From Paecilomyces variotii (Eukaryota): DNA of 40,125 nucleotides. Under the pieces are notes generated by a model. That model made no database searches. It was not told where the DNA came from and saw nothing but the letters and a program-made list of their open reading frames with translations. Below are positions 1,531 to 29,411 of the stretch, piece by piece; the stretch's first letter is position 1, and every line of letters starts with the position of its first letter. The DNA lies in assembly GCA_004022145.1 (NCBI GenBank), contig RCNU01000025.1; one strand, 5' to 3'. The position numbers were made by a program, and so were the translations under genes.

Positions 1531-2070
1531 TTGGATAGCTCTAGGGCAAATAATGGGCAACCAAGCTAGGGTTATGACACCTGGATTGCAAAGATAATGC
1601 ATTGTGACTGAAAATCATGTAAAGGATTTCTAGGAGAACTTTGAAATGTCTACGTCAAACTTTGTTAGAATAATCTTCTGTCTCTCGCAGTATGACTAGA
1701 ATTTCTGCCAGAGGGTCCAGGCTGAATGATTTTTAAAAAATGTTGAACCTTATACTCTGATTTATTCCCCAGGCTCTTCACGAACTTCAGTTGTATATAG
1801 CACCCTGGCCAATGTATCCAAGATAGCAATAATTCAGAACATACGATATCCCGGACGGGGTATCCCAGACAACAATGGTGTACTAATCACATGCTTAACC
1901 TTAAAATATCCAGCCTCAAGCGACGGTTGCAAAAAAAAAAGAAACACAACCAAAGAGCTCGGTGTTCAAAGCGGCTCCCGCCAACCCAAATATCATTTAG
2001 GATATAGCACAGTAAGGTGGACATGGACCTTAGCTATACTTTGATGTTGTTGACAGTTGGGTGAGTGTTA

Positions 2071-2113
2071 ACGTATTTCACTACCGAGCGGCCACTACCC
2101 CCGAGTGGCCACC
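2071..2113 (+). repeat. Left terminal inverted repeat of the Fot1/pogo element
   Basis: Exact reverse complement of 3902-3944. Confidence 0.95.
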
Positions 2114-2164
2114 TCACCTAAAACGCGTCAATTAATTTACCCCCTTCTTCTTCAACCACCTACC

Positions 2165-3838
2165 ATGCCACCAATTCGCTCCCGAAGCTCTAGAAATTCA
2201 ATAGAGCAAGAGGGTAGGATCTTATTAGCTATCCAGGCTTTTAAAAATAGAGATATCGGCTCTATTGCTCTTGCAGCAAGCACTTTCAATGTCCCGCGTA
2301 CAACTCTCCGCCGCCGAATTGATGGAGTACAAAACCGCGCGAATTCTCGCGCAAATTCGTCTAAATTAACAGAAATTGAAGAGGAATCGCTTGAAAAATG
2401 GATTCTTTCTATGGATCTACGTGGAGCAGCCCCCCGGCCCTCTATGGTACGAGAAATGGCGGATCTTCTTCTTCAAAAGCGTGGAACTACCCCGGTTCTT
2501 TCGGTCGGCCAAAATTGGGTTACGAAATTCGTTAAACGACGTCCTCTCCTCTCCTCCCGATTCTCGAAACGGTATAACTACGAGCGTGCGAAATGTGAAG
2601 ACCCTAAAATCATTAGGGAGTGGTTTGATTTAGTTCAAAAGACAATCCTTCAATTTGGAATCGACCCCGACGATATCTATAACTTTGACGAGACTGGTTT
2701 CGCGATGGGATTGACTGCAACTACGAAGGTTATTACGCGGAGTGAATACTACGGTCGGAGGCCTGTTTTACAACCTGGAAATCGTGAATGGGTGACAGTG
2801 GTTGAATGTACGAATGCTTCTGGATGGGCCCTTCCTCCGTGTATGATTTTTAAAGGCAAAGTCTTTATTAAATCATGGTTTGACGGCCTTCCGGAGGACT
2901 GGCGCTTCGAAGTTAGTCCTAATGGCTGGACCTCTGATGAGATTGGACTTCGTTGGCTTGAGAAGCTCTTTATTCCTAGTACTTTACGTACGAAGGGGGT
3001 ATACCGGCTTTTGATTCTTGATGGTCATGGCAGTCATTTAACGCCTAAATTTGATGCAATTTGCGAGCAAAATAAGGTGATACCAATTTGTATGCCAGCG
3101 CATTCATCTCATCTTTTACAACCTCTAGATGTGGGTTGTTTTGCAGTACTAAAACGATCGTACGGTCGGATGGTTGAAACTAAGATGCGGAACGGGATCA
3201 ACCATATTGACAAACTTGACTTCCTTGAAGCATACCCTCTCGCACGAATTGAAGCTTTTAAATCGGAGACAATCAAGAATAGCTTCTTAGCTACCGGTTT
3301 AGTACCGTTTGAACCCGATCGGGTTATTTCGAAGCTCAATATCCGGCTTCGAACCCCAACCCCCCCCCCTAGCCGGGGGAGCGAATCAAGCCGAAATTTT
3401 ACACCAAAAACACCAGCTACAGAGAAAGATCTACGTCGGCAGGCTTCGTCAATTAAAGCTCTACTTCGTACAAGATCTCGAAGCCCGCCTAGCCCGTCAG
3501 ATCGTGCATTAAACCAGCTTGTGAAAGGCTTCCGTCTTACAATGCAAGGTGCTATCCTACTCGCCAAAGAAAACAAGGAATTACGCGCCGCCAACGAGAA
3601 GCAGAAGCAAAAGCGTACTAGATCCCGGAGGCAGATACCTGCCGAAGAAGGCCTTTCAGTTCAAGAAGCCTCTGCATTAATTATGCAGCAACAAGAAGCA
3701 ATTGAAGCACCTCTCCCCGGCCCCGGCATGCCTGGAGAATCGACTGTTCAGTCACGTACGCGGCCCCCCCGGGGGTGTGGAATATGCAGATTGCCAGGGC
3801 ATAGGAGAGAAACATGTCCAGATAGACCAGTTAGTTAG
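2165..3838 (+). CDS. Fot1/pogo DDE transposase (HTH_psq, CENP-B HTH, DDE_1, C-terminal CCHC), 557 aa
   Basis: FNVPRTTLRRR HTH; catalytic motifs YNFDETGF, LILDGHGSH, LQPLDVGCF; terminal CGICRLPGHRRETC. Confidence 0.95.
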   Translation: MPPIRSRSSRNSIEQEGRILLAIQAFKNRDIGSIALAASTFNVPRTTLRRRIDGVQNRANSRANSSKLTEIEEESLEKWILSMDLRGAAPRPSMVREMADLLLQKRGTTPVLSVGQNWVTKFVKRRPLLSSRFSKRYNYERAKCEDPKIIREWFDLVQKTILQFGIDPDDIYNFDETGFAMGLTATTKVITRSEYYGRRPVLQPGNREWVTVVECTNASGWALPPCMIFKGKVFIKSWFDGLPEDWRFEVSPNGWTSDEIGLRWLEKLFIPSTLRTKGVYRLLILDGHGSHLTPKFDAICEQNKVIPICMPAHSSHLLQPLDVGCFAVLKRSYGRMVETKMRNGINHIDKLDFLEAYPLARIEAFKSETIKNSFLATGLVPFEPDRVISKLNIRLRTPTPPPSRGSESSRNFTPKTPATEKDLRRQASSIKALLRTRSRSPPSPSDRALNQLVKGFRLTMQGAILLAKENKELRAANEKQKQKRTRSRRQIPAEEGLSVQEASALIMQQQEAIEAPLPGPGMPGESTVQSRTRPPRGCGICRLPGHRRETCPDRPVS

Positions 3839-3901
3839 TTGATTTAATTTAATGGCGTTTTGGTTGAGATAAATGCATTTGAAATTTATACATTTGGGTG
3901 G

Positions 3902-3944
3902 GGTGGCCACTCGGGGGTAGTGGCCGCTCGGTAGTGAAATACGT
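3902..3944 (-). repeat. Right terminal inverted repeat of the Fot1/pogo element
   Basis: Exact reverse complement of 2071-2113. Confidence 0.95.
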
Positions 3945-3946
3945 TA

Positions 3947-4230
3947 AGTCATTCTCTTGTCTAAGATTTTTGAAACTTCCTCCAGAGGCCGGCTCTTCGT
4001 CTCTGGAAAGAGAAAGTAAAAAAATACCAAGAAAATCATGAGACAGCCTACATTGACGCAATGGTAGTTCCAATAGAGCACAAAAAAAGCCACCTGGTTG
4101 ATATATTGGACGAAAAATCCAGCTACAGCATCGATTGAAAACATAGTCGCAAGGCCCTTTGCGTTGTAATATGATGCTCGTGCAACTCTGGAATAAAGCC
4201 GAAACATCGGAAATAATTCCACCACTGTCT
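3947..4230 (-). pseudogene. C-terminal remnant of an MFS sugar porter (lactose/hexose permease-like)
   Basis: VELFP, AGFFVQYINQVA, FYFLFPETKSRPLEEV resemble the sugar-porter PETKG..LEE C-terminus; no N-terminal half visible. Confidence 0.65.
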
Positions 4231-4463
4231 ATACAAAGAACCAAGTTGATTGTAAATCAACCTATATTGTCGTTTTTTATCCCTCAGAAATAAGATTGAA
4301 CTTGTCACAGAAGGTGGCAGGTGGCATGTTTATGTACATGCGGCTGCTGATCTAGCATTTCAACTCATTTCTGATAGAAAGAGCCACTTAGTTCTTGTTA
4401 AGACAGAGATCGGTAGTCTGAGGGTTTGATCCCCCTAACTTGTTAGATTAAGTTTAAACTGAC

Positions 4464-4477
4464 TTGAACACTTAATA
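4464..4477 (+). repeat. LINE target-site duplication, left copy (TTGAACACTTAATA)
   Basis: Identical 14-mer at 11035-11048 directly after the LINE 3' tail. Confidence 0.92.
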
Positions 4478-4610
4478 GAGAGACAACTCTTTCTTGGCAA
4501 AAACGTTTTCTTGAAATATCTCGCCAATCAGAGGTACCAGGATCTCGTGAATTAGTTCATCTTAGTTGTAACTTTACGCGCTGCCATTTGATACCCATTT
4601 TGGGGGTGAA

Positions 4611-6590
4611 ATGGCGGTGATGGTTGCGACTGGTGCAAACGCACAGAAATTGTTCCTGGACGGGAGAGGAATACCGAAAACTATGGTACCCGGTGGCCCA
4701 CCTATATTGATGGACGACATCGCAGAAGGAGCTCACCGGGTGCTAAACTATATTGAGAATAATAGCACAGAGGACCGATATGTCACTGGATATATTCGGG
4801 CTGTCCGCCAATATGCACTCAACGCCTAACGGGGCGATGGCATGGAGATGGCCAAGGTGCTTAAAATGTTGGCCGAGATTAACGCCGATATTAAACGCCT
4901 GAACCAACGTATCAAAACTGTTGAGAAAACAACGAGCACACTATTGATGTCTTTGTCTACCCTTCCTGCTGACTCCGCGGCAGTGTGGCGAGCCTTTTGA
5001 GCTAAAGACTGGCAGCGTGGCTTGGCCCAGGCTGAGACGCCCAACCTCTGTAGCTACGGCACATCGCCTCCGGGGGTCCTGGAAATTGAGCTTTGCGAGG
5101 ACAGGGAATTGATTGTGAAAGTTGGACCCAACTGTGTATAGGTCTGCGCGTTATCACCTAAGGAGCTTGTGGAACGGATAGAGCGACAAAAAGCAATGGT
5201 TACTAGACAGAAGAACTCCACGGCCCTAGCTGGAGGGGCTAGCTTTGTTGTAGCCCGGAAACTGCCATCAGGCGATGTGGTAATGATAGCAAATAGTGCG
5301 GCAGGGGCTAAGACCCTCCGCAGGCACACCGAGTGGCTAAGGGCGTTCGGGCCAGGCTCGATCGTCCAGGAACCGTTATGGGGGGTTGTGGCGTATAATG
5401 TTCCGGTGAAATCGATGAAGCTTACCCCGGAGACGATGACCAACGTCGCAGCTGAACTGCTCGCGCAGAATAACTGGGGAGAAGCTGCCAGGATTCAGTA
5501 TGTCGGCTGGCTGAAGCGGCCGGGGGCACGAGCAGAGGGCTCGGTCCTAATCGAGTTCACTAGCCCAATAGTGGCTAACCACGCGATCGTCACTGGTGTC
5601 GTCTATGGTAAGCAAATCCATCATGCTGTGCGTTTCTGCTGGGAAGGGCGGACAAAGCTATGCAGGAAATGCTAAAAGCCGGGGCATATCCAGTCACACT
5701 GTTCCAATGACTTCAAATGTGGCCACTGCGCCGATGGGCACCCGACCTGGGAGTGCCCATCGACGAAGGGGCAAAAAATACTAGTCAAATGTGCCAACTG
5801 CGATGGAGATCACCGCCCGACTAGTCAAGAATGTCCAGTAAAGAGGGCAGCCATGACCGAGGCTAAACGAGCATTAGCTGATTCATCTACCTACCACCGC
5901 GTGCCTCTGCATTTCCGACATACCGTGGATGGCAGCAAGGCGGCACCTCCGACTACTGGACTTGGAATATCAATGCCTGCACCGGAGAGACAGGCGGAAG
6001 ACGAGTCACCCCAGCAACCCCAACCGGTTGCAATCGACCTGGAAGCGGAACCACATGCTATGGGGGCGCCGGCTAAACAGCATATTGAACTAACAAAGAC
6101 CAGGAGAGGTCTGGGCCGCCCGAAAGGTTCAAGAGTCAAGCCCAAAGATCAGGGACTGCAACCGAGAGACAACATAGCCCCAACGGCAAATCAACGATCA
6201 ACAAGATTGCAGGCCGCCTCTCAGAAAGCGGCCCAGGAACACACCATTTCTAAAAAGCGCCGCGTGGGCGAACCCGAGGACACTATGGATGAACAGCCAG
6301 ACGATAGCAACTGGCTCGATATCTGTCTCCCTCAGGCAGAGCTATTACAGGACTACCCGCAACAAGATCGGTCCGAAATTGAGCTTACTCAGTTCACTAA
6401 CGAAGTTACCACAATCAATAATACTAACAGTCCCGAGCCTAGTCTTTAGAACCTGGATCTAGATAGTCCGGAGTACCGAAAACTAATTACTTTAAAGTAT
6501 AACTGCCTATAATCCATACCAGTCAGATTATCTCCTCCAGTGTTTATAACTGACGCACCTATAATTAAAGATTAAAATAATGAAATATAG
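4611..6590 (+). pseudogene. LINE ORF1 (gag-like), interrupted by a few RIP-type stops
   Basis: CRKC*KPGHIQSHC, CGHCADGHPTWEC, CANCDGDHRPTSQEC knuckles; in-frame pieces 4611-4829, 5169-5675, 5853-6449. Confidence 0.85.
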
Positions 6591-6615
6591 CATAAAACAA
6601 GCGAGCATAGCGATA

Positions 6616-9600
6616 ATGAACAAACATATTAATAAGATTATTCTAATTGCTCTAGTATAATGTACATAAATTGTAGTTAGTAATAGCCACTTTTCTTAGG
6701 GACACAGTGGTCCTTGCGGCGGATATTATTGTAATTTAAGAGCTATGGCGAAATGAACAGCAACATATAACCTACTAGCCAGCGACTATAGTATTTCAGC
6801 TAGTATACCCAGCAAAACAAATCTCCTAAAACTAGAATTAACCTCAGGATCCGGAATCAGACCTATCTCCGCCAGGAATATGCTTCTTCGTCTTGAGGAA
6901 GATTGATCTTAGCACCTGGTCGTGCTAACTGATAATGCAGGATTATCAGCTACTAAAGCTGAGAAAAGCTTATATTAGCAAGGATTAGATAGACCTATTT
7001 ATATATAATATATATAACAGGCCAGGCAGCGATATACTGGTCCAGCTAAAAAATAAATTAGCTAGGCGACTGCTAGCTGAACATATTATAATAGGAGATA
7101 TAAATACTCACCACTTAATATAGGAAGGACTAGGAGTTAGGGCCAATAATAAAGCTAAGCAACTGCTATAGATTATAGATAAGCAAGATCTAGAGCTAAC
7201 TATTGAGCAAGAGAAAGCTATCTAAATATAAAACAATCAATTATTGGTAATTAACCTTATATTTATTAGTTTAAGCCTTAATAGCAGATTTATCTGCTGT
7301 AAGCAAGCGGATAATATTAAGCAAGTATTAGACTATTTTCCTATTAGAATGGCAATTAATATTAAAACACCAATTGCTATATAATAAAGGTAGAGAAACT
7401 AGAAAGCTACTAACAACAAGAAACTAGTCAGAAAAATTGAAGAGGGCCTACAGACTATGGAACAATCTGTGGCCAATTACCTGCAAATTAAAGCGCAATG
7501 TTAAAGACTGATAGAAGTTGTCCAGTCAGCTATTAACTTCTTAACTCTATAGGCGAACCCATTAGTATGGTTAAACCTAGATTTTAATAATAAGTATAAG
7601 GCTGTAGTAAAAGATATCCGCCAACTATAATATATCTACATAAGAATAAAGGACCCTTATAATTGGATATAGTATTCAGAGGCATATAATAAGAAGACAC
7701 GCTTAATTAAGAAAACGCTCTCTAGAGTATACTAACGCCAAGTCTAGCAAGTCATTGAAGACGGGCTATAAGATATGTGGCGCCTTATAAAATAGGTAAG
7801 ACACCGAGATAGGGCATATAAAAAAGGTCTTACTCCTTCCTTAAAAATTTAAGACCCTTAACAGCTGGGTAAGATTGCAGAAATAGTTGATTAAAAAGCA
7901 GAGGCTTTTTAAGCGGCCTTCTTTCTACAACCACTATAAGCAGACCTCTCTAATACTTCGTCCTATTGATATTTATAACTGATCGATTTCCCTCCAATTA
8001 CAGCATAAGAGATACACGATGTAGTAAGGACAGTGAAAGCAGGGAAGGCACTAGGAGATGACAGGATCCTAAACTCCCTGTGGCATAAGCTGATCGGGAT
8101 CCCTAGTGTTTTGCAGGTGCTGGAATATATGTTTAATGCGTGCATCCGCACTAGCTATAATCTAACATATTTTCAGAGGTTAATCACGGTAGTCCTCTGA
8201 AAACAAGGCAAAAGTAACTATTAACTGGCAAAGTCCTACAGGCCAGTTGCGCTTCTCAACACTCTGGGAAAGTTTCTCGAAGCGGTAATTGCACGACGAA
8301 TTAGCTATGCTGTTAAAACCGAAGGACTGCTTCCAAAGACTTATCTCGGCGGCCGACGAGGCATTTCCACAGACTATGCTATTCATATTATGGTCGACCG
8401 AATCAAACTGGCCTGGGGAAAGGGCAAACCTGTAGTGTCCCTACTAATGCTGGACGTGTCTGGAGCATACGACAATGTATCCCACGACAGATTACTCCAT
8501 AACCTCAAAAAGCGAAAACTGGGGCAGCTCGTCCCCTGGGTTAAAGCCTTCCTGTCGAACCGGAGCACAAAAAAAAAAAAAAAAAATTCAAAAAATTCGA
8601 ATGCCGGAAGGCACATCCGATCCGTTTCCGACACACACCCACAGGCATTCCACAAGGGTCGCCAATTTCCCCGATCCTCTATTTGGTCTACAATGCAGAC
8701 CTGATTAAGAACTATAGAAATAGAGTAATAAGCAGCGGCTGGGTAGATAATGCCTATTTTATAATTAAAGGAGATAGCGAGCGGGAGACTATAAGAAAGC
8801 TCTGTTTAGTATGCTAAAAGGCCGACTAATAGGCTAAGACGCACGCTTCGGTCTTTAATCTGAAGAAATATGCGCTCGTGCATTTTATAAATATAAAAGA
8901 GGTCGACCCAAAATATACGGCGCTGAATTTATAAGGTTATATAGTTATAATAATAAGAACGGCCGAGCGGTACTTAAGCTATTAGCTCGATCTAAGCCTA
9001 GACTTCCAACACTACCGCGAGACAGCAGTTACAAAGGCAGGCATATCCCTCCAGGTATTATAGAGCCTGGCCGGCTCTACCTGGGGAAACTCCTTAGCCG
9101 CTATGCGCAGGATTTATTAAGCCATAATTATCCCCCAGTTGCTCTTTGGAGTATCAGCTTAGTACTAGCCTATATTAGCTAATAAAGTGAAAATACGCAT
9201 AATCAGACAACTATTTATAGTTATATAGAAATATGTAGTATACCTAATTAATAGGGCATTTAGGACGACAGCAGTAGAAGTATTAAACATAGAATTATAC
9301 CTACTACTAATTATAATCACTATAAATAAGATAGTTAAAGAAACAGCCCTATAGCTATAAACAGGACCTATATTTACTATACCACCAATAATACTATAAT
9401 GTTAACTAGTGGATAAGAGAGAATAGTCTAGATAATTACTAATAAAGGCGCAAGCCTAAAAAATAAGCAGATGCCTTATAATTCCCTTAGAAACTTTAGC
9501 CAGAGACTAGGAGAGTCGGAAGGTATTTATTTAGGCACTATAATAAGCGCCGCCGGAGGTAACTATTAAAGACAGAGAGACCGCTATAAATTATTATAAT

Positions 9601-10581
9601 AAGACCTTACTTAAAAACTTGCAAGAAAGACCCTTAATACTCTATACTAACAGTAATAGAATTAAAGGAAAGATTAATACAGCGGCGATAGTTAATCCAA
9701 AGAAAAAATATGCTTATAACTAGATAGGCAATAAGGAAATATCTATAGTATATGCCGCGGAGCTCCGCGCTATTAAGATAGCCCTTGCCTTAGCCTTGCA
9801 GAGCACAAAGCTATAGACTGTACTAGCAAAGAATAGGCTCATTATTTTTACAGACAGCTAAGCTATATTAAAGGCACTCTGCCGACCGCGAATATTGTTA
9901 GGGCAAGCCTATCTGGCTGGGTATCTAGACCTGATCTAGCGACTTGCATGCACCAGAGGCATCTAGACAGAGCTTAGGTAAATCCCTGCCCACCAGAGAG
10001 TAACCGGTAATAAAATAGTCAACCAACATATAAAAGAAGCAGCCCAGGAACCTAAAGGATTACAGAATTCTTATAATCAGAATATCCGCCTTACAGCTGC
10101 GGTAAAGCGCTGTATCTACAGTGAGGTAAAGATTAAGTAAGAAAAATTATAGACTAGCAAAAAAACTAGTCGGCCGATAAAATATTTAATTAAAGTATTA
10201 ACCCAGAAGACCCTAGCATATTAGTTAGGCCTAAGGAAAGCAATAACATCAATTCTGATACAGTTTTGTACTAGACAAATTGGGCTATATATATATCTAA
10301 ATTATATTAACAGATATAATTTAGCGCAGTGTAATTATAATTTAGGAAATTAGATAGTTAATTACATTTTGCTGGAGTGCCTGTTACTTTAAAATAAATA
10401 TAAATAGATAAGAAATGCCTTATCTAACTGTAGAGTCACTCTTTAATGCGATAATCTTCTAGAGCGACTAGAGGCTTGCATAATTATAGCGGAATTTGTG
10501 GTTAGAACAGGTCTTTTAGACTAGTTTTAGGCAGTCGACCCAGTCGCTCTTAGTATAGGAGAAGGCGATGAGATAGAATAA
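6616..10581 (+). pseudogene. LINE ORF2 (endonuclease-reverse transcriptase-RNase H), RIP-damaged and frameshifted
   Basis: RT motifs LLNTLGKFLEA, LMLDVSGAYDNVSHDRL, GIPQGSPISPILYL; RNase H-like YAAELRAI; poly-A insertion at 8569-8590. Start coordinate approximate. Confidence 0.88.
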
Positions 10582-11034
10582 CCCCTCAGAATAGTGTAAT
10601 AGAGGAAGAAGGATAGCGCCTGCTAGGAGTGCAGTGCTAGGTCTACTGCACTCCCTTAATCCAAGCAAATATGTAAGCGGAGGCCAACAGCAGAAATAAT
10701 AAAGCAGGAGAGAGTAAGAGAGTAATGCGAAGGCGTAGTGTATATATATCTAGCGAGATAGATCCCGGATTGTGGGAGGATCCAGGGGGAGGATATTTGT
10801 TTTAGGTTAACTGATTTTGTTTATTGTGTTTGCATATCTGCATTTCCTTTATCTTATTTGCATTTGTTCAAGGATAACTAATAAGGAGCTCGCTCTATAA
10901 GCCCCATTAGACAGTTTATCTAGTAAGCAGGCGCCTACTCTATAGCTATCGGCAGGCCCGACAGCACTCCCGCATAGCAGCATATATTTAGAGTAAGCTA
11001 CATCGGGCAAATAAATTCATCATCATTATCATCA

Positions 11035-11048
11035 TTGAACACTTAATA
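11035..11048 (+). repeat. LINE target-site duplication, right copy
   Basis: Identical to 4464-4477. Confidence 0.92.
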
Positions 11049-11056
11049 ATGGCAGA

Positions 11057-12330
11057 CTACCCAATCTCTATATATGTTTCCCCGCTTTGGCTCAGAATAT
11101 CTGCCAGGAACGGTGTCTTGAGGATTTTCTTATTAGCCAACATTATCAATATCCCCTAAAACGTAATAAGCCAAAGCAAAAGAGTGATGCCTGATAGAAC
11201 CTAGCATAAATAAAACAAAGTTAGTGAAAATTTTGTTGAAGACAGTCCGCGTGGATAAGTAACTTGCCGTTGCAAAGATCTTAAAGAATGTTGACGACAG
11301 TTGATTACTGATCATTATTGTTGCCATAGCTAACGTACCTACCAAGTTCAGAATATGCCGCTTTAGTGCACGAAAAAAATTCAGAAAGGATATAATACCC
11401 GTCGGGAATGTTGTACTCCACCAATTGATGTTAAAAGAGACCTTTGCTCTGACTGCTGATGTTGCTGCAAAAAGGAACCACCACAACCCACACGCCCAGA
11501 AAGGGAGGCCGGCTACCAATCCTATCTTGGAGAAAATTTCCTCCGGACCTGGTGCCCTAGAAGGTCTGAGTCTCACGCTGCATAATGGATAAGCTTATAT
11601 GCATCCTACCAGGAGTAACTGATCACCAATTTCTCCCAATCTCATAAGCCTAAAAACACCATTAGTGAAATGTATCGTATGTATTTGGCTGTGAGTTGAG
11701 GTATACCCAAACGCGCCGTATCCAAATGGACCTGTTGGCAGAGCTAACGACACTATATGCTCCTTTGGTGGCATATTGGTCTCCAGTATGTTGTAGACAT
11801 AGAGTATAATGAAAGCCATGGCTGGAAGTATGCCAATACTCCACAGGATATAGCTTGTGATAGCCGTCTGAGTTATCTGACGTTCGCTCGAAAGGACTTC
11901 CGCAATAACCCCACCCGAACTTGCAGAGACAATCGGCGCAAGAAATGGAAATAACCCGCTCGTCGTCATGACCGATGACTTTATACCGTGGGTCCAGAGT
12001 CTGTGGTTGAGATGAGCAGAAAAATAAGAGGAAGCAAGAAGAATAAAAAATAGCCACTTACATATTGAAGGAGACAAGGCAGCAGACCAGAATCGAGAGA
12101 GAGACATCTACCCACCACAGAATCCAAGCTAGTTGAATCGGCCAGCAATTGCAGCTATGCGGTAGAGTGTCCAAGTATATACGGGAAACTCCGCACACTA
12201 TGAGGAATGGGCAATAGGAAAAGGCGAGAGCTATTGCAAGGTCATTTAAGTAGACATCGATTTCTATACTAATCATACCCAGATTCCTGGGTCAGTAATA
12301 TACTGTATGGCGTTGTAATGATGACGTATG
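11057..12330 (-). pseudogene. TDT/SLAC1-family (Ssu1/Mae1-like) anion/dicarboxylate transporter, multi-exon, premature stop in last exon; 5' end uncertain
   Basis: LAWILWWVDVSLS, APIVSASSGG, LALPTGPFGYGAFG, LPFWACGLWWFLFA, FNINWWSTTFPTG motifs; in-frame TAG at 11156-11158; natural stop 11057-11059; no clear start ATG found. Confidence 0.75.
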
Positions 12331-12488: not shown

Positions 12489-12562
12489 GCGCTTATTTGT
12501 CACTTCCATCACAACTTTCCAAATACAGTAACTAACTGGGCGTCCCGGTAAGCAGACCCACA
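12489..12562 (+). repeat. Dispersed non-coding element, copy 1 (core plus TCCCGGTAAGCAGACCCACA)
   Basis: GCGCTTATTTGTCACTTCCATCACAACTTTCCAAATACAGTAAC...TCCCGGTAAGCAGACCCACA; matches copies at 12984, 14563, 14638, 26308 (rc) and 28859. Confidence 0.9.
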
Positions 12563-12983: not shown

Positions 12984-13023
12984 GCGCTGATTTGTCACTT
13001 CTATCACAACTTTTCAAATACAG
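12984..13023 (+). repeat. Dispersed non-coding element, copy 2 (~160 bp upstream of merB ATG)
   Basis: GCGCTGATTTGTCACTTCTATCACAACTTTTCAAATACAG. Confidence 0.9.
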
Positions 13024-13074
13024 GACTTTCTCGTACTACTCGTAAAATCTGTTTGGCCAAATACGTGTAAAGGT

Positions 13075-13080
13075 TATAAA
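13075..13080 (+). promoter_or_regulatory. Candidate TATA box of merB
   Basis: TATAAA ~100 bp upstream of ATG 13182; it overlaps the upstream ATG 13080, arguing against that start. Confidence 0.4.
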
Positions 13081-13181
13081 TGTTCTGTTCTCGATGCGTC
13101 CGTTGCTGTCGACAAAAAAATTCAACTACACATTTCGTCCGTCCCTCACAGGCCTGCTATTCCCTAAGCCTGAATTCGCCA

Positions 13182-13820
13182 ATGTCACAGAAAAGCTCCG
13201 TCTCGCTTGAATATGAGCAACTTAAGAACCAGTTACTCGCCGACATGATGGCAATACCAGCATTCTTCCCGGCACTTCTCCGACTTGTTAGCAGAGGAGA
13301 ACCAGTACCCATTGCTGCTCTTGCTACCGAAGTACACATACCAATCCACGATATCGAACAGTGGCTCCGTCAACAGCCCGGGACCGACTGGGACAGCCAG
13401 GGACGGCTGCTCGGTTTCGGCCTTACCCAGCGCCCGACAAACCACCGATTTGTCCTGGATGGCCGGACCCTTTACACATTCTGTGCCGCAGACGCCTTGA
13501 TTTTTCCAGCCCTCCTTGGCCAAACCGCAAATGTTGAGTCCAGATGCGCGGATTCAGGCCAGCAGGTTCATGTCAAGGTTGAGCCAAATGCGGTTGTGTT
13601 TGCCGACCCTGGACAGACAATGGTTTCACACATTCCCGGGTCTCTGAGCAGTTGTGACATCAGAAGCACAGTATGTAACCACGGCGTTTTCTATGCCTCG
13701 GTTGAGTCTGCGCTTCACTGGCAAGAGAGACACCCCAACGGGGTGGTCCTTCCAGTTGAAGAGTTCTTCAATATTTGTTTAGCTGGATTGAAGAAGGCAG
13801 GCCTCATTCCATTTACGTGA
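13182..13820 (+). CDS. merB: Organomercurial (alkylmercury) lyase MerB, intronless, 212 aa
   Basis: Colinear with bacterial MerB: ALLRLVSRGEPV, DWDSQGRLLGFGLTQRPT.HRF.LDGRTLYTFCAADALIFPALLG.TA.VES.C, DIRSTVCNH..FYAS; C101/D104/C165 correspond to the MerB catalytic Cys96/Asp99/Cys159. Confidence 0.93.
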   Translation: MSQKSSVSLEYEQLKNQLLADMMAIPAFFPALLRLVSRGEPVPIAALATEVHIPIHDIEQWLRQQPGTDWDSQGRLLGFGLTQRPTNHRFVLDGRTLYTFCAADALIFPALLGQTANVESRCADSGQQVHVKVEPNAVVFADPGQTMVSHIPGSLSSCDIRSTVCNHGVFYASVESALHWQERHPNGVVLPVEEFFNICLAGLKKAGLIPFT

Positions 13821-14562
13821 AAGCCTGCGAAAGCGCAGTCATAACTATCTTATCCTGGGACGCGTCCTCTATTACTAAGTAGAGTCCCATCCGATCGAAT
13901 GGCACATATAACTATCTGAAGCTAAGTCGACTAAGTGTATAGCTACAATATCGGAATCTATGTAGGCTCCCAGCAATCCTAGTAAGCAGACACACACTTA
14001 TATTTAAAGTGGCAGTCAAGAAGCAGGAGTTCGCTTGACATGACATCTCAGATCCCCCGTATCATTACATAGCGACTGGACGCCTTTTTATACTCATGAC
14101 ACTGAAAGTTGTCGACTTCATTTGAGACTTTATCGGAACAAGTTCGTAATATTGGAGAAATTTTCTGAGGCTGGTTAAGGGTAGGGAAGCGTGTGTTGCA
14201 AATATTCTTGGGCGGCGGTGTAGCCTTCGCTTGTCCCATTCCTTATTTCTGAACTGGGTGTAGGGACGGGCAAGAACGATGCTGAAGACTTACCATAACC
14301 ATACAATCCATGATAACAGACTCTTATAGTAATGCATGTCCTTGACTGAATTTAGAATTTAGGGAAAGTGAATGACGAGGAGCAGAATAAGCCCAATCGA
14401 GGTCAATCAGTCAGTCCCTCGTACGGTTCGTTCCTTCTCCCACCAAGTGACTAGCTGAGGTTACCATAACGTTGCATCATCTATGCCTTCAGACTCGAAG
14501 TATTTGTGTGTCTATTTTGCTTTCCGTTAAATTCGTACTCCGTATAGTGCACAATGATGAAA

Positions 14563-14684
14563 CCAACCCTTATTTGTCACTTCTATCACAACCTTTTAAA
14601 TACAGTAACATCCCGGTAAGCAGACCCACATGCAAGGCCAACGCTTATTTGTCACTTCTATTACAACTTTTTAAATACAGTAAC
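14563..14684 (+). repeat. Dispersed non-coding element, copies 3 and 4 (tandem, 75-bp period)
   Basis: CCAACCCTTATTTGTCACTTCTATCACAACCTTTTAAATACAGTAAC at 14563 and CCAACGCTTATTTGTCACTTCTATTACAACTTTTTAAATACAGTAAC at 14638, separated by TCCCGGTAAGCAGACCCACA. Confidence 0.92.
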
Positions 14685-15084
14685 TCTGTACTCCGTACCG
14701 CTATGAACAAGGATTTATAGCCTATTATAGAGGTCAATCAGGATACGCTAGTGCCTTTGCAGAGCACTAAATCCAAAAATTTATAAATTTTATCCAAAAT
14801 TTTTTCGGCCGCTTAGGCTCTTAGCCAAGAAAAACTAATTCTAATTATGTTAATATAAGTGCTTATTTTCCCTTAAAAAGGGGCAAAGCACGGAATAACC
14901 GTGGTAATTTATGTAAGGGACGGTTATATGAGGATGGGACTACTGTTTAAATATGCAGTGTCTACTGCTTTAACTCGAACCAAACCTCATCTACCTTCTG
15001 ACTACGAACGGTCTTCACTGTATTTTGGCTTTCGTCCTTAACAACTCCATCTTTAACTGCCCGCGCCTTTTTCTTCGTGTTACT

Positions 15085-16202
15085 ATGTCGAATTTCGAAG
15101 GAGCTTATCCCGAATTGAGGGGAAAAGAGATGGCTCTCGGGAGTAGTCACCAGGGTATCTTGGAAGGCTCATCCCAGCAGAAACTGTCGACTTTACGTCC
15201 AGGAGAATTCGAGAAAATGTATATGTCGCCCGCGAACAAGGTGGATGGAAATTTGCGACCAATCTTTGGCAACCCCACTCCCCTGTGAGTCTTCATTCGA
15301 CTAGTACACTAGGGCTTCCATATTCTGATTCAAACAAAACCGATAGTGGCTTGTTGGGCATGAATCTCAGTGTGAGCCCTCTTTGCTGCCAGTTAATGGG
15401 ATGGGCTGGAGCTGGCGGTGGAGGTGCTGCAACGGTGTCAGTTTCATCCCACATGTTGAATAAATAGGCTTCAATTCTCTGTGGATCTGACCAGCTTGTT
15501 TGGACAGCGGCGCTTTCTATTTCATAGGTGGGCTCCTTATGACTCTGGCAGGCGTTCTAGAGTTCATTCTCGGCAACACCTTCACATTTGTCGTCTTCTG
15601 TTCTTTCGGTGCGTTGATTTACAAAGTATGTCATGACAATATGTCATCCGACTGATTTAAACAGGTGGCTTCTGGTTTTCTTTCGGGGCGACTCTGACCC
15701 CGGCATACAATGCGACAGGGGCGTATAACCCGTCAAATCCAATGAACCCGGAATTTCACTCATCATTTGGTATTATGTCTCCTGGTGTTATCAATGAGAA
15801 ATTCTAACAGATGATTTTCGACAGCTTTTTTTGCGTTATTCATGGGCTTCCTCTGTTTCGTATACCTTATCTGCAGCTTTCGGATCAACTGCGCCTGCAT
15901 GATAATGTTTCTCTCTATGACACTTGGCTTCTGCTTAATGGCAGGTACTTATTGGCTTATTGCGCGCGGAAACATGGATCTTGCTGAGAAAACGCAAGTT
16001 GTTAGTCCATCTCTTCACTAACCCCGTGTGTCAATTACTGACAACATGCAAGGTAACTGGAGCTTCGCTTTTTGTGACGAGCATGTCAGGCTGGTATTAT
16101 TTCGTGGCAGAGCTGTTCTCAAGCATTGGCATGATGTCAATCCCAGTGGGGGATCTCAGTCGTTTTGCTAAGCGTATCGGCCTTATGGAGAATAAAGACT
16201 AG
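15085..16202 (+). CDS. GPR1/FUN34/YaaH (SatP/AcpA-like) acetate/short-chain carboxylate channel, multi-exon
   Basis: FGNPTPLGLLG, LMGWAGAGGGGAA, LEFILGNTFTFVVFCSFG, GWYYF, IPVGDLS; GT-AG introns (first donor at 15285) keep the frame for the first three exons checked. Confidence 0.88.
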
Positions 16203-20838: not shown

Positions 20839-22252
20839 CTAATTGTATATTCCGATCACTTGTTGGAGTTGATGATCATTTTGGTAGCACTTCATGGCCT
20901 CTGGCTTCCAGGTCTCCCAATGGAAATCATCAGTGATGCCCATAGCTCCCAGAAGTCCGGCAAAGAGCCCAAGGAATCCTTTCCAATCAGTGAGGTCGTA
21001 GCCGCAACAAAATCGGAATCTGTGGATGAGCCGGCCATTCCTGACAATCGTTGCGAGATCCGGATGCCCTTTTGCTTCAAGGCACTTCGCAAAGAACACT
21101 TCGTCTTCACCGATAGAATTTTCGCCCGCATAAAAATCAGCAACGGGGAGCAGGACAATCGGTGAATTAAATGCTCCTGACTTAGAATCCGTATGCGCCC
21201 ACTCCCAGTCGATGATACCGGTGATATTAAACTCATCGTCGACAAGTATTTGGTCTCCCTTCTCGTTCGCATGCTTCAAGTAGAACTTTCCATCGTCAAG
21301 ATGACTTCGAGAGCAGGCTTCCGGGACTTTGTCCAAGAGAAACCGATGAATCAAAAACGCATCGACTGCTCGATCGACGTACGACTCCTGTCGAATGATC
21401 AAATCCAAAATTAATTGGATATGTGCGCTAAAGTACTCTTTAGTAGAGAAGAAGGGGCCGAGCGCTTTCATCTGGGAACCATGGTACTCTGTCAAGGACT
21501 CTCGAGCAAAGGGTCCAATATCATGAGATCCAGGATGGTGCATAGAACCCGTCATAGCGAAAGGATGAGCATACAGCTCTATGTAGATGTCCGCAAGCTG
21601 ACTTGTCACCTTTCTTCTTTGCTCAGGAGTGGCAAGAGACCAGCGCAAGGAACGTCCAGGAAGCTTCTCCATTAGAATATATCCAACGCCAACAGGGTTC
21701 GGTTCACAGAAATTGAAGTCAAAAACTTTCGGAGCTGGGACTTTAGTTTCACTAAGAAACTGCAGGGTTGAGACCTCGCTGCGCAGAATGTAATCTCGCA
21801 GCTCCGCTGGCGGAGAAGTGGCGTTGGACCTTCGAATACGCGCCAGCCAAGTGATTCCATCATCAAATAATATCTCGATATGATAATTCATCCCCCCCAT
21901 AACTGAGCTTCGTGTTGATCTATCATATTGAAGATCGTGTGGTATGGAACAAGGGAGTCCTCCCCGAAGAGCTGAGGCTCGAGAAATGAGCGCAGAAATA
22001 TCGATTTTATCAACAAGTTTGGTGATCTCATCTTGTTCGGCTTTCCTGGCGGCGGGGTCGTATTCAGCTTCTTCCTGTCCATAGAAATCAGCATGGCCCA
22101 TGACACCTTTATTTTTGACTTACCTCCCATCTTGGACAGGTGTGGTAACTTGACTCCAGATGTTTCGCACAAAGATGACGATTACATAGAACGCATTCTC
22201 CGTATGTCCGAACAGCGGCTTTGTTGCAGTTTTCGATGTCACACAACCACAT
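20839..22252 (-). CDS. Cys/His zinc-finger plus APH (aminoglycoside phosphotransferase-like kinase) protein, 2 exons, 454 aa; catalytic Asp replaced by Asn
   Basis: Exon 1 22252-22124 (MWLCDIENC..ECVLCNRHLCAKHL..YHTCPRWE), 49-bp GTAAGT..CAG intron 22123-22075, exon 2 with MGGMNYH, WLARIR, SEVSTLQFL, YILMEKLPG, HANEKGDQILV, GIIDWE. Confidence 0.85.
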
Positions 22253-22454
22253 CGTCAGTTGCCAATCTTGTCAACCTCTCAAGTAGACTACAGTAGCAGA
22301 AAAGGCGGCCGCGTCTGCTATTTATGTGTTCAGCCCTTACCAGATATATCGCGTGAATTTTGTTGTGTCTGGTGCGGACGTGGAACTAAAATCATGAACA
22401 CACCGCCAATTTGATACGTGGCGTCTGCGCAGAGTTCCAAGATCCCTGACTTCT

Positions 22455-22981: not shown

Positions 22982-25542
22982 GGGGAAAGGGTAAGCCGGT
23001 GGTATCCTTGCTGAGGCTGGATGTGTCAGGAGCATATGATAATGTATCCCACGAACGATTACTCCATAACCTCAGAAAACGGCGACTGGCCAACTCGTGC
23101 CCTGGGTAAAGGCCTTTCTCTCAAACCGAAGCACGACAATCCGGATACCCGAGGGCAAATCAGACCCCTTCCCGACACCAACCGGCATTCCCCAAGGATC
23201 GCCAATTTCACCTATCCTCTACCTAATCTACAACACAAATCTTATCAAAATCCACGGGAATGAAGTGACTAGCAACGGCTGGGTAAATAACGCCTGCTTT
23301 ATAGCTAAGGGAGATAGCAAGCGGGAGACCATCAGGAAACTCAGATTGGCTTGCTAAAAGGCGGACCAATGGGCCAAAACCTATGCCTCTGTATTTAATC
23401 TGAAGAAGTATGCGCTTATACACTTTGTGAACACCCAAGAGGTCGATTTGTAATACACACCGCTATCTCTCTAAAGATATATAGTGGCCGCAATCTGAAC
23501 AGCTGAACATTATTTGGGATACTGGCTAAACCCTGAGCTAGAATTTAATTATCACAGGGAAAAGGCAACTGTCAAGGCAGACATGTCTCTCTAAGCGTTA
23601 CGGAGCCTAATAGGTTCAATATAGGGAGCCTCTATTTCAGCTATATATAGAATCTACCAAGCAGTAGTTGTCCCCCAAATACTCTTTAGGGTATTAGCCT
23701 AGTACTAACCAATGGTAATTAGCAAGACGAAGGCACGCACAATTAGTTAACCTTTCATAACTATCTAGAAGTAGGCAGCGTGCCTAATTAGTAGAGTGTT
23801 TAGAATAATAGCAGCGGAAGCTCTGAATATTAAATTATACCTACCTCCTATTATAATCTATATAAACCGGCTTATAAAAGAAATAGCTGTGTAGTTATAA
23901 ACAGGACTAACTTTTATTATTCCCCCTATAATGCTATAAAGTCAACCTATAGATAAGAGAGACTGGTCTGGATAGATACTGATAGAGGTATAAGCCTAGA
24001 AGATAGGCAGATATCTTATTAATCTCTTAGATATTTTAGCGAGCTGCTGGGAGAGTTAAAAGGTATTTATTTAAGCGCTATGGCAAGCGCTACTAAAGGT
24101 AATTATCGAAGATAGAGAGATAGCAATATATAATTAGACTAGATCTTAGCCAAAGATTTAAGCAAAAGACCCTTAATACTATATACCAATAGAAGCAGAA
24201 TTAAAAGAAGGGTCGGAGCGGCAGCGATTATTAGCCTTAAAGATTAATATACTCACAGCTAGATAGGCGATAATAATATATCTACTATATATGCTGCCGA
24301 GCTTTACAGCATTAAGATAGCACTTATATTATTCTTAGAGAGCACAGAATCGTGGGCTATATGGGGGAAAAAAGGGCTTGTCATCTTCACAGATAGCTAG
24401 GCGGCATTAAAGGTACTCCGCCAGCCGCGAATGCTATCCGGACAGGTCTATCTAGCAGGTTGTCTAGACCTTATATACCAACTCGGTACAAAAGGCATTC
24501 CGACAGAGCTTAGGTAGATTCTAGCTCATCAAGGAGTAATTAGTAATAAGCTTACAGATTAATATGCAAAAGAAGCTGCGCAGGAGCCCTAAGGACTAGA
24601 GAACCCTTATAATCGATATATCCACCTAGCTACTACAGCTAAACGCTAAATTCACAGCAAGGCGAAGATTGAGTGGGAGAGGGCGTGGGCGAAGGAGAGG
24701 ACTAGCCGACTAATGAAATGCCTAATTGAGGCACCAATAAAAAAGGCGCTGGTATACTGGTTAGGGCTATATAAGGCAACATCGTTAATTCTAATATAAC
24801 TTCGAACTGGGAAAATCAGTCTTAGTGCATATCTGAGTCGCATTAACTAATGCAACTTACCCCGGTGCGACTGCGACCTAGGCAACCAGATAGTGACTTA
24901 TGTTTTACTCAATTACCCGCTGCACCAGGACAAGCGCAATTAGATAAGAAGCGCTCTTTCCAACCAAGGAATCGCTCTCCGCCGGGATAAGATTTTGACC
25001 CGGCCAGAGGCTCGCATAATTATGGCCGAATTCATGGTTAAAACCAGCCTCCTAGGCTAGTTTCAGGTGGTCGATCCAACTACTCTATATGTAGAAGAGG
25101 GTGATAAGAAAGATTAACCCTTCAGAACAGTGTGACAGAAGGAGAAGGATAGTGCCTAAAAGGACTGTAGTGCCAGGTCCACTATAATCCCTTAATTAAA
25201 GCAAACGCGCGAGTGGCAGCCGATAGTCTGGGTGGCTGTGCAGAAGTAGGTGCGAGGGAGGTAATTATGGGGAAGGTGATCCTGGGTTGTAGCAAGAACC
25301 AGGGGGAATGTTCGTTTTGAATTTCCTACTTGTTTATGGTGTTTGCATATCTGCGTTTCTTTTATCTGCATATATTTGAGGACGACCAATCAGGAGCTCG
25401 CTCCGCGAGCCTCATGAAACAGTCGTTCAGTGGGCTGGCAACCACTTTAAAGCTGTCGGCAGGCCGGATAGCACTCCCGTATAGCAGCATAGATTAGAGC
25501 GAGCTACATCGGGCAAATGAATTCATCATCATCATCATCATC
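22982..25542 (+). mobile_element. 5'-truncated Tad1-like LINE (RT to 3' end), diverged relative of 4478-11034, RIP-damaged
   Basis: LDVSGAYDNVSH, PWVKAFLSNRST, GIPQGSPISPILYL; ORF2 stop at 25115-25117; same 3' end GCTACATCGGGCAAAT.AATT followed by (CAT)6; no TSD found. Confidence 0.92.
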
Positions 25543-26307
25543 TTGCTGGCAGGACGGCAGTTGTCAGATTTTAAAATCACAGGTTTTGGGGAGCTGCAGT
25601 ACAGACTCACAGGGTGCGTATTACCCGAAGGTAGAGCCGCCTCACTTTTGAACGAATTCTTGCCGCTCTTCCGGACAGAGTTTGGTTGTCAGTATTTTAC
25701 GCATTAGGTCTGTACGTACGAGTATACGCAACCCAGTTGTGATTCGGAACTACAGTCAGCGAGGCTTTGATTGGATGGGATGCTGAGGAATTACAGGTTC
25801 AGCCTTCGCAGAGATTGCCTCCTGATCGCCACTTGGTTCCAAGGAACATCTGGAACTAGTCGGTCGTAATTCATGAAAGGTTCCCCTCGAGTAGACGCAC
25901 GCCTCGCTCATACCGCTATGGCCCTTGTGTACAGTGGCGCCACAGAAGTCTGCGACCACCCCTTTGACCGCCAGCATCTCCGCCTCCCTATTATAGCCTA
26001 CCTAAAGGTAGTCGCGCGTCGCGTTCTACATTACGTTATTGAAGATAATTTTTTGTGCAGCAGAATTAATGGCAGAAAAAAGCCGTCAATCAGGGGGTGG
26101 TCGCAGACTTTTGCGTCGCCACTGTAGGTCCGCTTGCTACGTACGACAGTACAGTACACTAATTAGGGCAGGGACGAGTACTAGGCAAATTGACAAAGTC
26201 GTGCCATAGAACTGAAGACAAGTAATAGGCCGCTTTAATTCGACCCTGCAAGGTTGTGGGGGTTCCAGGCTGGCTTTGCTAGCGAGTTGCGCACGAGGGA
26301 GTGCTCA

Positions 26308-26342
26308 GAAAAGTTGTGATAGAAGTGACCAATGAGCGTGGG
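26308..26342 (-). repeat. Dispersed non-coding element, copy 5 (inverted)
   Basis: Reverse complement reads CCCACGCTCATTGGTCACTTCTATCACAACTTTTC. Confidence 0.85.
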
Positions 26343-27538: not shown

Positions 27539-28190
27539 AGGTGGCAAAGATTGCAGCCATCTGAACCAACGAAATTAGGATCAGACAAGAGCTCTCGTCG
27601 TCACAAATAATTTGATCAACTTCTTGGAGCCGTGCGCCCCTGGTTATCGAGATATTTCAAGAAATCGGTTTTGCCGAGAAAGAGATTGTTTTCCGACGAT
27701 AGCAATATTTGAGGAGCTATCCTCGACTTTCTTCAAGGTCTTTGGTATAGCAAGTGCTTCGCAACCAAATAAACCCTTGAAATCAACAGTTGCTTATGTC
27801 CGCTTTACAAATTCCCGATCCTATCATGCATCACGCTTTTGCCCCGGTTTATCGTAACTATCGGAACAGTTAAAAATAATAGTCAACAAGAAAACACTCA
27901 AGACGACATTTATGGCAGATATGCTGGGTTCAGTGACCAATTCATGTGCCTGGAATGTGCATGACTCTTTAGGGCTCTCATCAATCTTTGGTAGAACTAT
28001 CCATAGCAATATTTCACCACAATTTCTAGGATTCATGACATTGTAGATCTCTTCTCCATTGCCAATATAGTCAAACCGTGGAAACTCAAATGCAGGCAAT
28101 CAGCAACTCGAGCCTGTATCCCGACGCAGGTCCAACTGCAGACCAAGCTAGCTACAACTTGGTGGACTTGGATAGGCGAGCAAGTCGCGA

Positions 28191-28511
28191 TCAACGCAAG
28201 TACTGGCGCTTGAATTTATACCATCGGTCTCCGAACGAACGACGTGATTTCTGCCCCCCATCGACTGTGGACATCTTGTAGACCTTTTCCGAAAAGCCCT
28301 GTTTGGAGTCTCTTCCTTTGGAAGACAGGGAAGCCAGGGTGGATGTCTCGGAGGCAGGTCCATCCAACATGTTCTTGCCTTTGAGCGGAGCGAGCTTTTG
28401 TCTTTCGCGGTACCTGCGGACAGCAGTATCGAGACTGGTCTCACCAGGTTTACTCCAACCCGCAGGACGAGGCACCACAACGTACATCGAGGCGTGCATG
28501 CCACAGCACAT
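28191..28511 (-). CDS. Small hypothetical protein (MCC paralogue B, 106 aa)
   Basis: Starts MCC; shares motifs with 26585..26860(+). Confidence 0.6.
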   Translation of the reverse strand: MCCGMHASMYVVVPRPAGWSKPGETSLDTAVRRYRERQKLAPLKGKNMLDGPASETSTLASLSSKGRDSKQGFSEKVYKMSTVDGGQKSRRSFGDRWYKFKRQYLR

Positions 28512-28835
28512 GTTAGGCGGTCGATGGTGCGTGCCGAAATGTGAGGTTGCACCAGATTAAGGGTGGATTCTTGTTGAGGACGAGGGGCACAGAATCGGAC
28601 AGTGGTGAATAGAAGTAGACTTGAGGGATTGCAAATGTAGGAGGGTGACTTTCGTGCACCTGGGGTGCTTCAATAAATATCGTAGTTACCTACGATGACA
28701 AAGGTTAAGAGTAAAGTTGATGAGTCGAAGTTAGCCACGGCCCCCTCCCCCGCCCAGCGTGTATTGATTATCTCAGATGGTTGATGAATTCCCGTTCACC
28801 CGCGCTACGGGGCGGAAAGGTTGTTTGTGGGAGCA

Positions 28836-28893
28836 GGTAGGCAGACCCGCAACTGGCGCCAACGCTTATTCGTCACTTCTATCACAACTTTTC
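28836..28893 (+). repeat. Dispersed non-coding element, copy 6 (between paralogue B and the ada-like gene)
   Basis: GGTAGGCAGACCCGCAACTGGCGCCAACGCTTATTCGTCACTTCTATCACAACTTTTC matches 14615-14672 over ~58 bp. Confidence 0.9.
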
Positions 28894-29411
28894 TTACCAA
28901 TATCTGTGTCCACCCACACCTCTTTCCGTGGTGGCTGCGCCACATCCTGATCCCAAAAATCCTGGTCACACTTTACCAAAAATCAAGTGACCTGGGGGAG
29001 GCGAACATGGGGTTCTTCACTAAATCTGCGGTCATGTGATGCTTCTTCTGTATTAGTCATCAACACGACCTTTCCTTTTTCGTTACAGTGCGCTCAGACC
29101 ACAGCCAATGATGAGGCCGAATTCTGCCAAATTCTGCCACGCTAACCCGATGGGTTGCTTCATCAGTCTGTCAGCATCGCTGGAAAAAGTAGGCGGTGGA
29201 CGGCCAAATTCACCGCTTTTTGGGGGGCGGCTGGGGAAACTGAGTTAAGTCCGAGTGCTGTTTGACCACTCCTTCAGTTCGTCCTGTTTGACCATTACGC
29301 AGCAAATCTGAACCCCATATATCCACTATATCTTGACTATCCTACCTTGAATATATAAATCACATACCGGGATAATTTTCTCAAGAGCATTTTCTAAAAA
29401 CACAGTGCGAT

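Follow-up and report, generated by a model that had tools for sequence, protein, structure and literature searches.

The merB-type gene and its product

The DNA analysed here, referred to as the window, is a stretch of 40,125 nt from contig RCNU01000025.1 of Paecilomyces variotii (assembly GCA_004022145.1), in which a merB-type organomercurial lyase gene lies at 13182..13820 on the plus strand, among other genes, transposons and transposon remnants. The gene is a single uninterrupted frame of 212 codons and a stop codon, which begins with the ATG at 13182, ends with the stop codon at 13818-13820 and encodes a product of 212 amino acids (aa). The coordinates, the length and the intact frame of this open reading frame (ORF) are exactly those given in the original prediction, an earlier interpretation of the same DNA. 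The one frame matches the bacterial MerB homologues over residues 25-212, and thus the gene has no intron, as had also been predicted.

The start at 13182 occupies the position that is common to all four full-length near homologues (P0002-P0005, described below). A TATAAA element, read in the sequence at 13075..13080 on the plus strand, about 100 nt 5' of the ATG, is likely to serve as a eukaryotic core promoter for merB. Translation from an alternative in-frame ATG at 13080 would lengthen the product by 34 residues, to 246 aa. This codon overlaps the TATAAA element and the extension is seen in none of the four full-length relatives (P0002-P0005), and it is therefore unlikely to be the start. 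At the other end of the gene, the last 5-8 codons (13800-13830) are variable: the tails of P0002 and P0003 correspond to the +1 frame of the window, and those of P0004 and P0005 to the frame of the window itself. This difference is a 1-nt indel polymorphism outside the folded domain, and the corresponding last block of the predicted structure has a predicted local distance difference test (pLDDT) value of 68. The region around the gene (13001-14000) has a TpA/ApT ratio of 0.88 and a composite index of repeat-induced point mutation (RIP) of -0.27, and is thus without RIP damage.

In the Pfam search, the protein matched the MerB family (PF03243) with an E-value of 1.9e-31 and 109.1 bits against a cut-off of 27, over profile positions 1-120 of 126. 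It also matched HTH_15 (PF12324), the helix-turn-helix (HTH) domain of alkylmercury lyases, with an E-value of 2e-08 and 34.7 bits against a cut-off of 27.2. The HTH_15 domain occupies the N-terminal residues 26-80 and the MerB catalytic domain residues 81-198 of the 212-aa protein. The equivalog model PRK13239 of NCBIfam (NF009710) was passed, with a score of 196.8 against a cut-off of 193. In addition, five distinct MerB or MerB2 sequences of the PDB matched the protein, the best with an E-value of 2.9e-31, the MerB2 entry 5c17 being a weak sequence match only (2.1e-12).

The residue set of canonical MerB, as given in PMC8261052, consists of Cys96, Asp99 and Cys159 together with Cys117, in agreement with the three catalytic residues named in the original prediction. 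In the HMMER alignment to 1s6l and 3f2g, Cys101, Asp104 and Cys165 of the window protein align with Cys96, Asp99 and Cys159 of the R831b MerB, and Cys122 is the equivalent of its buried Cys117. The codons for Cys101-Ala-Ala-Asp104 lie at 13482..13493 and that for Cys165 at 13674..13676, both on the plus strand. C101, D104, C122 and C165 are all invariant in the 25 aligned sequences (25/25), and 33 columns of this alignment are invariant across the fungal and bacterial sequences. The retention of Cys101, Asp104 and Cys165, which had been claimed for this ORF, is thus confirmed.

The AlphaFold2 model of the protein, calculated with the 25-sequence alignment as input, has a mean pLDDT of 89.6 and a predicted template modelling score (pTM) of 0.86. 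When the model was compared with the PDB by Foldseek, all 11 matches with E-values of 0.001 or less were MerB or MerB2, with template modelling (TM) scores of 0.56-0.84, and the next match had an E-value of 0.075. The best match showed TMq/TMt values of 0.78/0.84, and the TM scores to the MerB crystal structures 3f2f and 3f0o were 0.76-0.84. By its family, its residues and its predicted fold, the product is thus classed as a canonical MerB organomercurial lyase (EC 4.99.1.2), and would be expected to act on the C-Hg bonds of organomercurial substrates.

Relatives and bacterial ancestry

Relatives of the protein were sought in 5.8 billion clustered proteins. Only five close clusters were found, with identities of 99% (P0002), 85% (P0003), 82% (P0004) and 80% (P0005), and 87% for a 122-aa fragment (P0006), and beyond these the identity falls to 56% or less. 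Within this group, the open frames are kept in four diverged full-length relatives. A profile search with the fungal-type MerB sequences gave 221 matches at E-values of 1e-10 or less. Among the best 120 of these 221, 12 carried an organism name, and all 12 were bacteria (9 Actinomycetota, 2 Dormibacterota and 1 Steroidobacteraceae); no fungal protein was found by name among the same best 120.

The bacterial genomes, scanned with one genome per species, returned 24 merB loci, of which the best were those of a Streptosporangiales metagenome-assembled genome (MAG; 52% identity), Nocardia africana (51%), Mycobacterium celatum (50%) and M. kyorinense (49%). When 1.84 billion representatives were searched exhaustively with HMMER, 1610 relatives appeared at E-values of 0.001 or less, which points to a large bacterial family. 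The best full representative, with 52% identity, is identical to the protein of the bacterial locus L001, and only two fragments of about 107 aa are closer (85-87%). The ESM Atlas contained bacterial MerB clusters only, with Actinomycetota the commonest, which is consistent with these results and adds nothing further.

Two trees were calculated from rows hand-picked among the search matches, with fragments and fused forms left out; the rows do not include the sequence of the Metarhizium enzyme discussed below. The first, a quick tree of 81 rows, comprised the window protein, 24 of the 50 cluster-search matches, all 24 loci and 32 of the 113 representatives of 185-260 aa. The second, a careful IQ-TREE calculation (LG+C20+F+G4, 209 columns), comprised 56 rows, namely the window protein, 39 matches of the cluster and profile searches, 10 of the 24 loci and 6 representatives, and was rooted on six distant rows.

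In the 56-row tree, the window protein and P0002-P0005 form one clade with a support of 100/100, whose stem branch is 0.66 changes per site long, compared to at most 0.23 within the clade. Its sister is the group of P0007, P0009 and P0015 (100/96). Both are nested in a clade of 36 rows (99/96), in which the named rows, seven source-named proteins and the locus L001, are all Actinomycetota (Streptosporangiales, Pseudonocardia, Nocardia and Mycobacterium). The quick 81-row tree agrees with this topology.

The GC content at third codon positions (GC3) of merB is 0.535, inside the range of 0.40-0.60 of the other ORFs in the window, whereas the bacterial genes of L001-L004 have 0.72-0.92. The nesting in the Actinomycetota clade, together with a GC3 in the fungal range, indicates an old transfer from a bacterium to a fungus rather than contamination or a recent event. 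The bacterial origin of merB is thus well supported, and probably the common ancestor of a few related fungi took the gene up from a bacterium of, or near, the Actinomycetota. The transfer from bacteria to fungi proposed in the original prediction is supported: the best bacterial identity is 52%, and the window clade falls inside a clade whose named rows all belong to the Actinomycetota.

The genes that accompany merB in bacteria were then compared with the window. At the Nocardia and Mycobacterium loci L002-L004 (approximately 3900-5020), merR lies directly downstream of merB and merA is absent within 4 kb; DCC1-like and DUF3556 neighbours are common to L003 and L004, and in L002 a phage-type integrase follows downstream at a distance of 0.8 kb. 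The locus L006 shows a merR-merB arrangement and a Pyr_redox_2 gene 2.5 kb away. The Pfam scans of the window covered 109 of its 116 ORFs of at least 70 aa and 279 of its 284 ORFs of 42-69 aa, the 12 unscanned ORFs being overlaps, in other frames, of MerB, the pogo transposase, APH and the ORF at 28151-28669. Within these scanned ORFs, neither a merA-like Pyr_redox_2 domain nor any match to MerR or MerT/P was found, and a tblastn search of the window with the MerA-like ORF of L006 gave no match. The absence of merA from the window, noted in the original prediction, was thus seen by both approaches. In addition, when all 526 ORFs from the 24 bacterial loci were searched against the window by tblastn, only the merB region matched, except for two weak matches, each about 40 residues long, at 8617-8739 and 21858-21968 (E-values of about 1e-4 to 7e-4). 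The linkage of merB with merR, merA and transport genes seen in bacterial mer operons does not exist in the 40-kb window, and no bacterial operon neighbours came along with merB.

Competing explanations and known systems

The explanation that we consider probable is that merB resides in the nuclear genome of a Penicillium-like (Eurotiales) fungus, having been acquired long ago from an actinobacterial type of donor and being by now fungal in base composition and expression signals. By analogy with the solved bacterial enzyme, Cys101 and Cys165 would bind the mercury atom of a methyl-, ethyl- or phenylmercury substrate, and the carbon would receive a proton from Asp104, so that the C-Hg bond breaks. 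The hydrocarbon would be released, and Hg(II) would remain on the two thiols until it is passed on, presumably to an unlinked MerA-like reductase such as the MIR of Metarhizium, or to thiol buffering.

The lack of a merA gene beside merB poses no puzzle for such a pathway, because MerA-like reductases (MIR) are, according to PMC9704736, widespread in fungi and unlinked to the methylmercury demethylase (MMD), and because the bacterial loci L002-L004 are themselves without merA within 4 kb. The other substrates put forward in the original prediction, such as organotin or organolead, would be speculative.

Several points weigh against this explanation. The stricter NCBIfam model NF033555 (lyase_MerB) gives a score of 198.5, narrowly under its cut-off of 200, and Asn166 stands where the R831b MerB has a second cysteine, Cys160. 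Cys160 is dispensable in the R831b enzyme; crystal structures of MerB C160S exist in the PDB, and are silent on its activity. The sister group P0007/P0009/P0015 could be bacterial or eukaryotic, which would leave the donor lineage loosely placed. The status of P0002-P0005 as fungal proteins from related species is suggested by their identities of 80-99% alone. The argument for vertical descent within the group, given below, is a soft one, as it is drawn from a single comparison of MerB and APH identities. Finally, a larger mobile element may possibly extend around the 40-kb window.

That the product is an inactive or re-purposed relic, acting on other organometals or merely binding metal, is very unlikely. 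Such a loss of function would be in line with the lack of merA, merR or a transporter beside merB, with the long stem branch, which could reflect changed constraints, and with the narrow shortfall for NF033555. MerB forms complexes with organotin and organolead compounds, and a MerB relative with other chemistry exists, namely SaoL (NCBIfam NF040728). However, the SaoL model gives a score of 40.6 against a cut-off of 140, all four defining residues and the 33 invariant columns are kept, and the residue at the Asp99 position is Asp (Asp104) and not Ser, as in the copper-binding D99S/MerB2 type. The confidence of the structure prediction is high, and the four diverged relatives keep their frames open in a genome that destroys DNA by RIP. 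In addition, the fungal MerB homologues assayed so far are active, as described in PMC9704736. Bacterial contamination or a chimeric assembly, which would place the ORF outside the fungal genome, is almost certainly not the explanation. Although the closest named homologues are all bacterial and the gene lacks an intron, its GC3 is far from that of the bacterial genes, and the best bacterial identity is only 52%. The flanks of merB have 43-44% GC and carry fungal repeats that recur elsewhere in the window, and on either side, within one contiguous sequence, there are fungal genes with introns as well as fungal transposons.

A different question is whether merB travels as the cargo of a mobile element, as the original prediction had proposed. 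According to PMC10104507, which cites Chang et al. 2020 on Penicillium sp. DC-F11, merA and merB are cargo of Starships of the HEPHAESTUS family and derive from a bacterial-to-fungal transfer, and these elements are common in Penicillium and Aspergillus. It is conceivable, if rather unlikely, that the present merB is cargo of such a Starship, or of another cargo-carrying element spreading among the Eurotiales, and that the window is an internal piece of it. The sparse distribution of the gene, with only five clusters of at least 80% identity among the 5.8 billion proteins, the surroundings full of transposons and RIP relics, and the stress-related or bacterial-looking genes nearby (Ada_Zn_binding+AraC, NUDIX and APH) would all agree with this. 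Conversely, no Starship captain (DUF3435) was found in the scanned ORFs of the window, which at 40 kb may be too short to hold one. The terminal repeat motif of HEPHAESTUS, taken from the 2020 preprint 10.1101/2020.03.06.981548, has no match in the window at up to three mismatches. Starships are expected to have terminal inverted repeats and a TTAC(N7)A insertion site, and there are no terminal or inverted repeats in the window that enclose merB. Moreover, merB is here unaccompanied by merA, and none of the relatives is as anomalously similar as a recent transfer between species would lead one to expect. The nearest distinct MerB relatives have identities of 85, 82 and 80%, compared to 87, 86, 86, 80, 81 and 83% for the relatives of the APH protein encoded in the same window, whose orthologues in related Penicillium species range from 87 to 78%. 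A divergence of this size would be explained by inheritance inside a small set of species no less well than by recent movement. Carriage as mobile cargo is thus not borne out in the window: a transposon-invaded stretch holds merB, and the stretch gives no sign of merB itself being carried.

The old, resident acquisition that we favour can be compared with four known systems. The R831b MerB (1s6l, 3f0o and 3f2f) shares with the window protein the layout of HTH_15 and MerB domains, the Cys/Asp/Cys set and the buried Cys117 equivalent, and the predicted fold, with TM scores of 0.76-0.84 at 32-34% identity. The window gene differs in the asparagine in place of Cys160 and in its setting, a eukaryotic genome with what appears to be its own TATA promoter and with no merR, merA, merT or merP in 40 kb. 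The actinobacterial MerB proteins (the Streptosporangiales MAG, Nocardia africana, and Mycobacterium kyorinense and M. celatum) are the closest named ones (49-52%) and belong to the enclosing clade, and the loci L002-L004 resemble the window in having no merA within 4 kb. Their genes, however, have 63-72% GC, with merR immediately downstream in L002-L004, and the fungal clade is set apart from them by its long stem of 0.66.

Two further systems are fungal. As reported in PMC9704736, the MMD of Metarhizium robertsii (MAA_09685) is homologous to MerB, derives from bacteria and removes the methyl group of methylmercury both in vitro and in vivo; its homologues in six further Metarhizium species and in 15 fungi besides are ascribed to two transfer events. 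The statement in the original prediction that a MerB-homologous methylmercury demethylase is described in Metarhizium was therefore correct. This system has in common with the window a MerB homologue in a filamentous ascomycete, a proposed transfer from bacterium to fungus, a patchy distribution and an unlinked MerA-like reductase. The window clade may be one of the two published transfer events or a further one. The merA/merB genes of HEPHAESTUS in the Eurotiales, as described in PMC10104507, share with the window gene the fungal order, probably the genus, the kind of gene and the proposed bacterial origin, whereas the merB of the window lacks both a merA and any Starship hallmark within the window.

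The transfer of merB from bacteria to fungi and its carriage as mer cargo are thus already in print as general statements, in PMC9704736 and PMC10104507, and the picture drawn there for the Metarhizium MMD and for metal-resistance Starships is unchanged. What appears particular to the window is a Penicillium-type MerB clade, placed by the tree among Actinomycetota and with no merA nearby. MerB is one of the clearest cases of transfer from bacterium to fungus, and the present locus is a further well-supported one, from a Penicillium-like mould, with a fairly well-defined donor group (Actinomycetota) and a gene fully adjusted to its host. The locus further shows that fungi retain merB even where no reductase is linked to it. 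It would gain in value if the acquisition proved independent or the gene demonstrably mobile, and the breakdown of methylmercury by fungi is of practical interest for the clean-up of soils.

Neighbouring genes, repeats and RIP

The upstream neighbour of merB is a pseudogene of a SLAC1/TDT-family transporter at 11133..12107 on the minus strand, which has an in-frame stop at 11595-11597 and an N-terminal part that is out of frame; Pfam SLAC1 matched two abutting ORFs of one frame with E-values of 7e-20 and 7.8e-12. The downstream neighbour is a gene of the Gpr1/Fun34/YaaH transporter family at 15086..16000 on the plus strand (ends approximate), in which PF01184 matches two small exons in different frames, joined by a GT..AG intron that was read in the sequence. 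Farther downstream, at 20842..22270 on the minus strand, lies a zf-AN1 and APH (kinase-like) gene, with an APH frame of 426 codons at 20842-22119 and the zf-AN1 exon just upstream. The best named relatives of the APH protein are those of Penicillium sp. IBT 35674x (86%), P. chermesinum (83%), P. hispanicum and P. diatomitis (both 78%) and P. canescens (72%), followed by Aspergillus, Talaromyces and Sordariomycete proteins. These Penicillium matches, along with the introns of the flanking genes and the RIP signatures, place the host as a Penicillium-like fungus. Other ORFs of the window encode RING-finger, sugar-transporter (fragment), NUDIX, Myb-like, Ada_Zn_binding+AraC and FSH1 proteins. The decayed neighbours described in the original prediction are thus found on the upstream side, in the SLAC1/TDT gene with its in-frame stop, whereas the downstream genes (Gpr1/Fun34/YaaH, NUDIX and zf-AN1+APH) look whole.

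The description of the region as transposon-rich was accurate, as shown by a pogo/Tc5 element, two RIP-worn copies of a retroelement and an AT-rich block marked by RIP. The pogo/Tc5 DNA transposon at approximately 2068-3947 contains DDE_1 and HTH_Tnp_Tc5 domains, 55-nt terminal inverted repeats that are 96% complementary, and TA flanks. Its transposase frame of 588 codons is uninterrupted, and the element is possibly still active. A 643-nt inverted repeat (26-667 and 6185-6821, 68.6% identity) encloses this transposon together with the RING-finger ORF, the sugar-transporter fragment and a frame of 434 codons at 5142-6449, which is split by a single in-frame stop at 5673-5675.

The first copy of the non-LTR (long terminal repeat) retroelement, at approximately 6989-11035 on the plus strand, contains fragments of Exo_endo_phos_2 and RVT_1 and a (TCA)n tail. 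The second, found by self-BLAST at 22982-25541 on the plus strand, is 5'-truncated and has its own (TCA)n tail. The two copies are 68% identical over 2625 nt, lie in the same orientation and bracket a block of 11.9 kb with the SLAC1 pseudogene, merB, the Gpr1/Fun34 gene, NUDIX, the Myb-like ORF and zf-AN1+APH. A composite transposon formed by these copies was rejected: because the second copy is 5'-truncated and the tails are separate, they look like independent insertions of one family of long interspersed nuclear elements (LINE).

The RIP indices are strongly positive from 33 to 40 kb (composite above 1, up to 1.35), mildly positive from 7 to 11 kb and negative over merB. Between 33000 and 40125, the GC content is 13-33%, except for one island of 43% at 36-37 kb, and CpA and TpG are almost absent; beyond 37 kb, in the most AT-rich part, there are only two ORFs of at least 70 aa. 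This block is heavily RIP-mutated repeat DNA, which may mark a compartment boundary or be pericentromeric.

Six copies of a 23-nt motif are present in the window, compared to zero matches expected by chance. Five copies are on the plus strand (12497-12519, 12992-13014, 14574-14596, 14649-14671 and 28870-28892) and one on the minus strand (26309-26331). The motif is the core of a unit of about 75 nt, which is tandemly doubled at 14541-14690. The copy at 12992-13014 ends 168 nt 5' of the merB ATG, and is one of four copies that precede a gene by 170-540 nt and point in the same direction as that gene; of the other three, two stand before the Gpr1/Fun34 gene and one before the Ada-like gene. The motif may have been left behind by a transposon, or it may be a cis-element that these genes share. 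Copies also fall within an inverted pair of short repeats, 26302-26342 and 28859-28899, which span 2.6 kb and are candidate ends of a DNA transposon, with no transposase domain inside. A more far-reaching proposal would be that the Penicillium-type clade received its merB from actinobacteria in an event of its own, other than the two published for Metarhizium, Fusarium and further fungi, and that it travels without merA on an unrecognised cargo element, of which the 23-nt/75-nt repeat would be a footprint or, alternatively, a promoter module for captured genes. We regard this combination as distinctly unlikely.

The Ada-like gene itself, an ORF at 29376-30125 on the plus strand, 16 kb from merB, matches Ada_Zn_binding with an E-value of 6.1e-28 and contains an AraC-type HTH, a layout of the kind found in a bacterial-style methylphosphotriester-sensing regulator.

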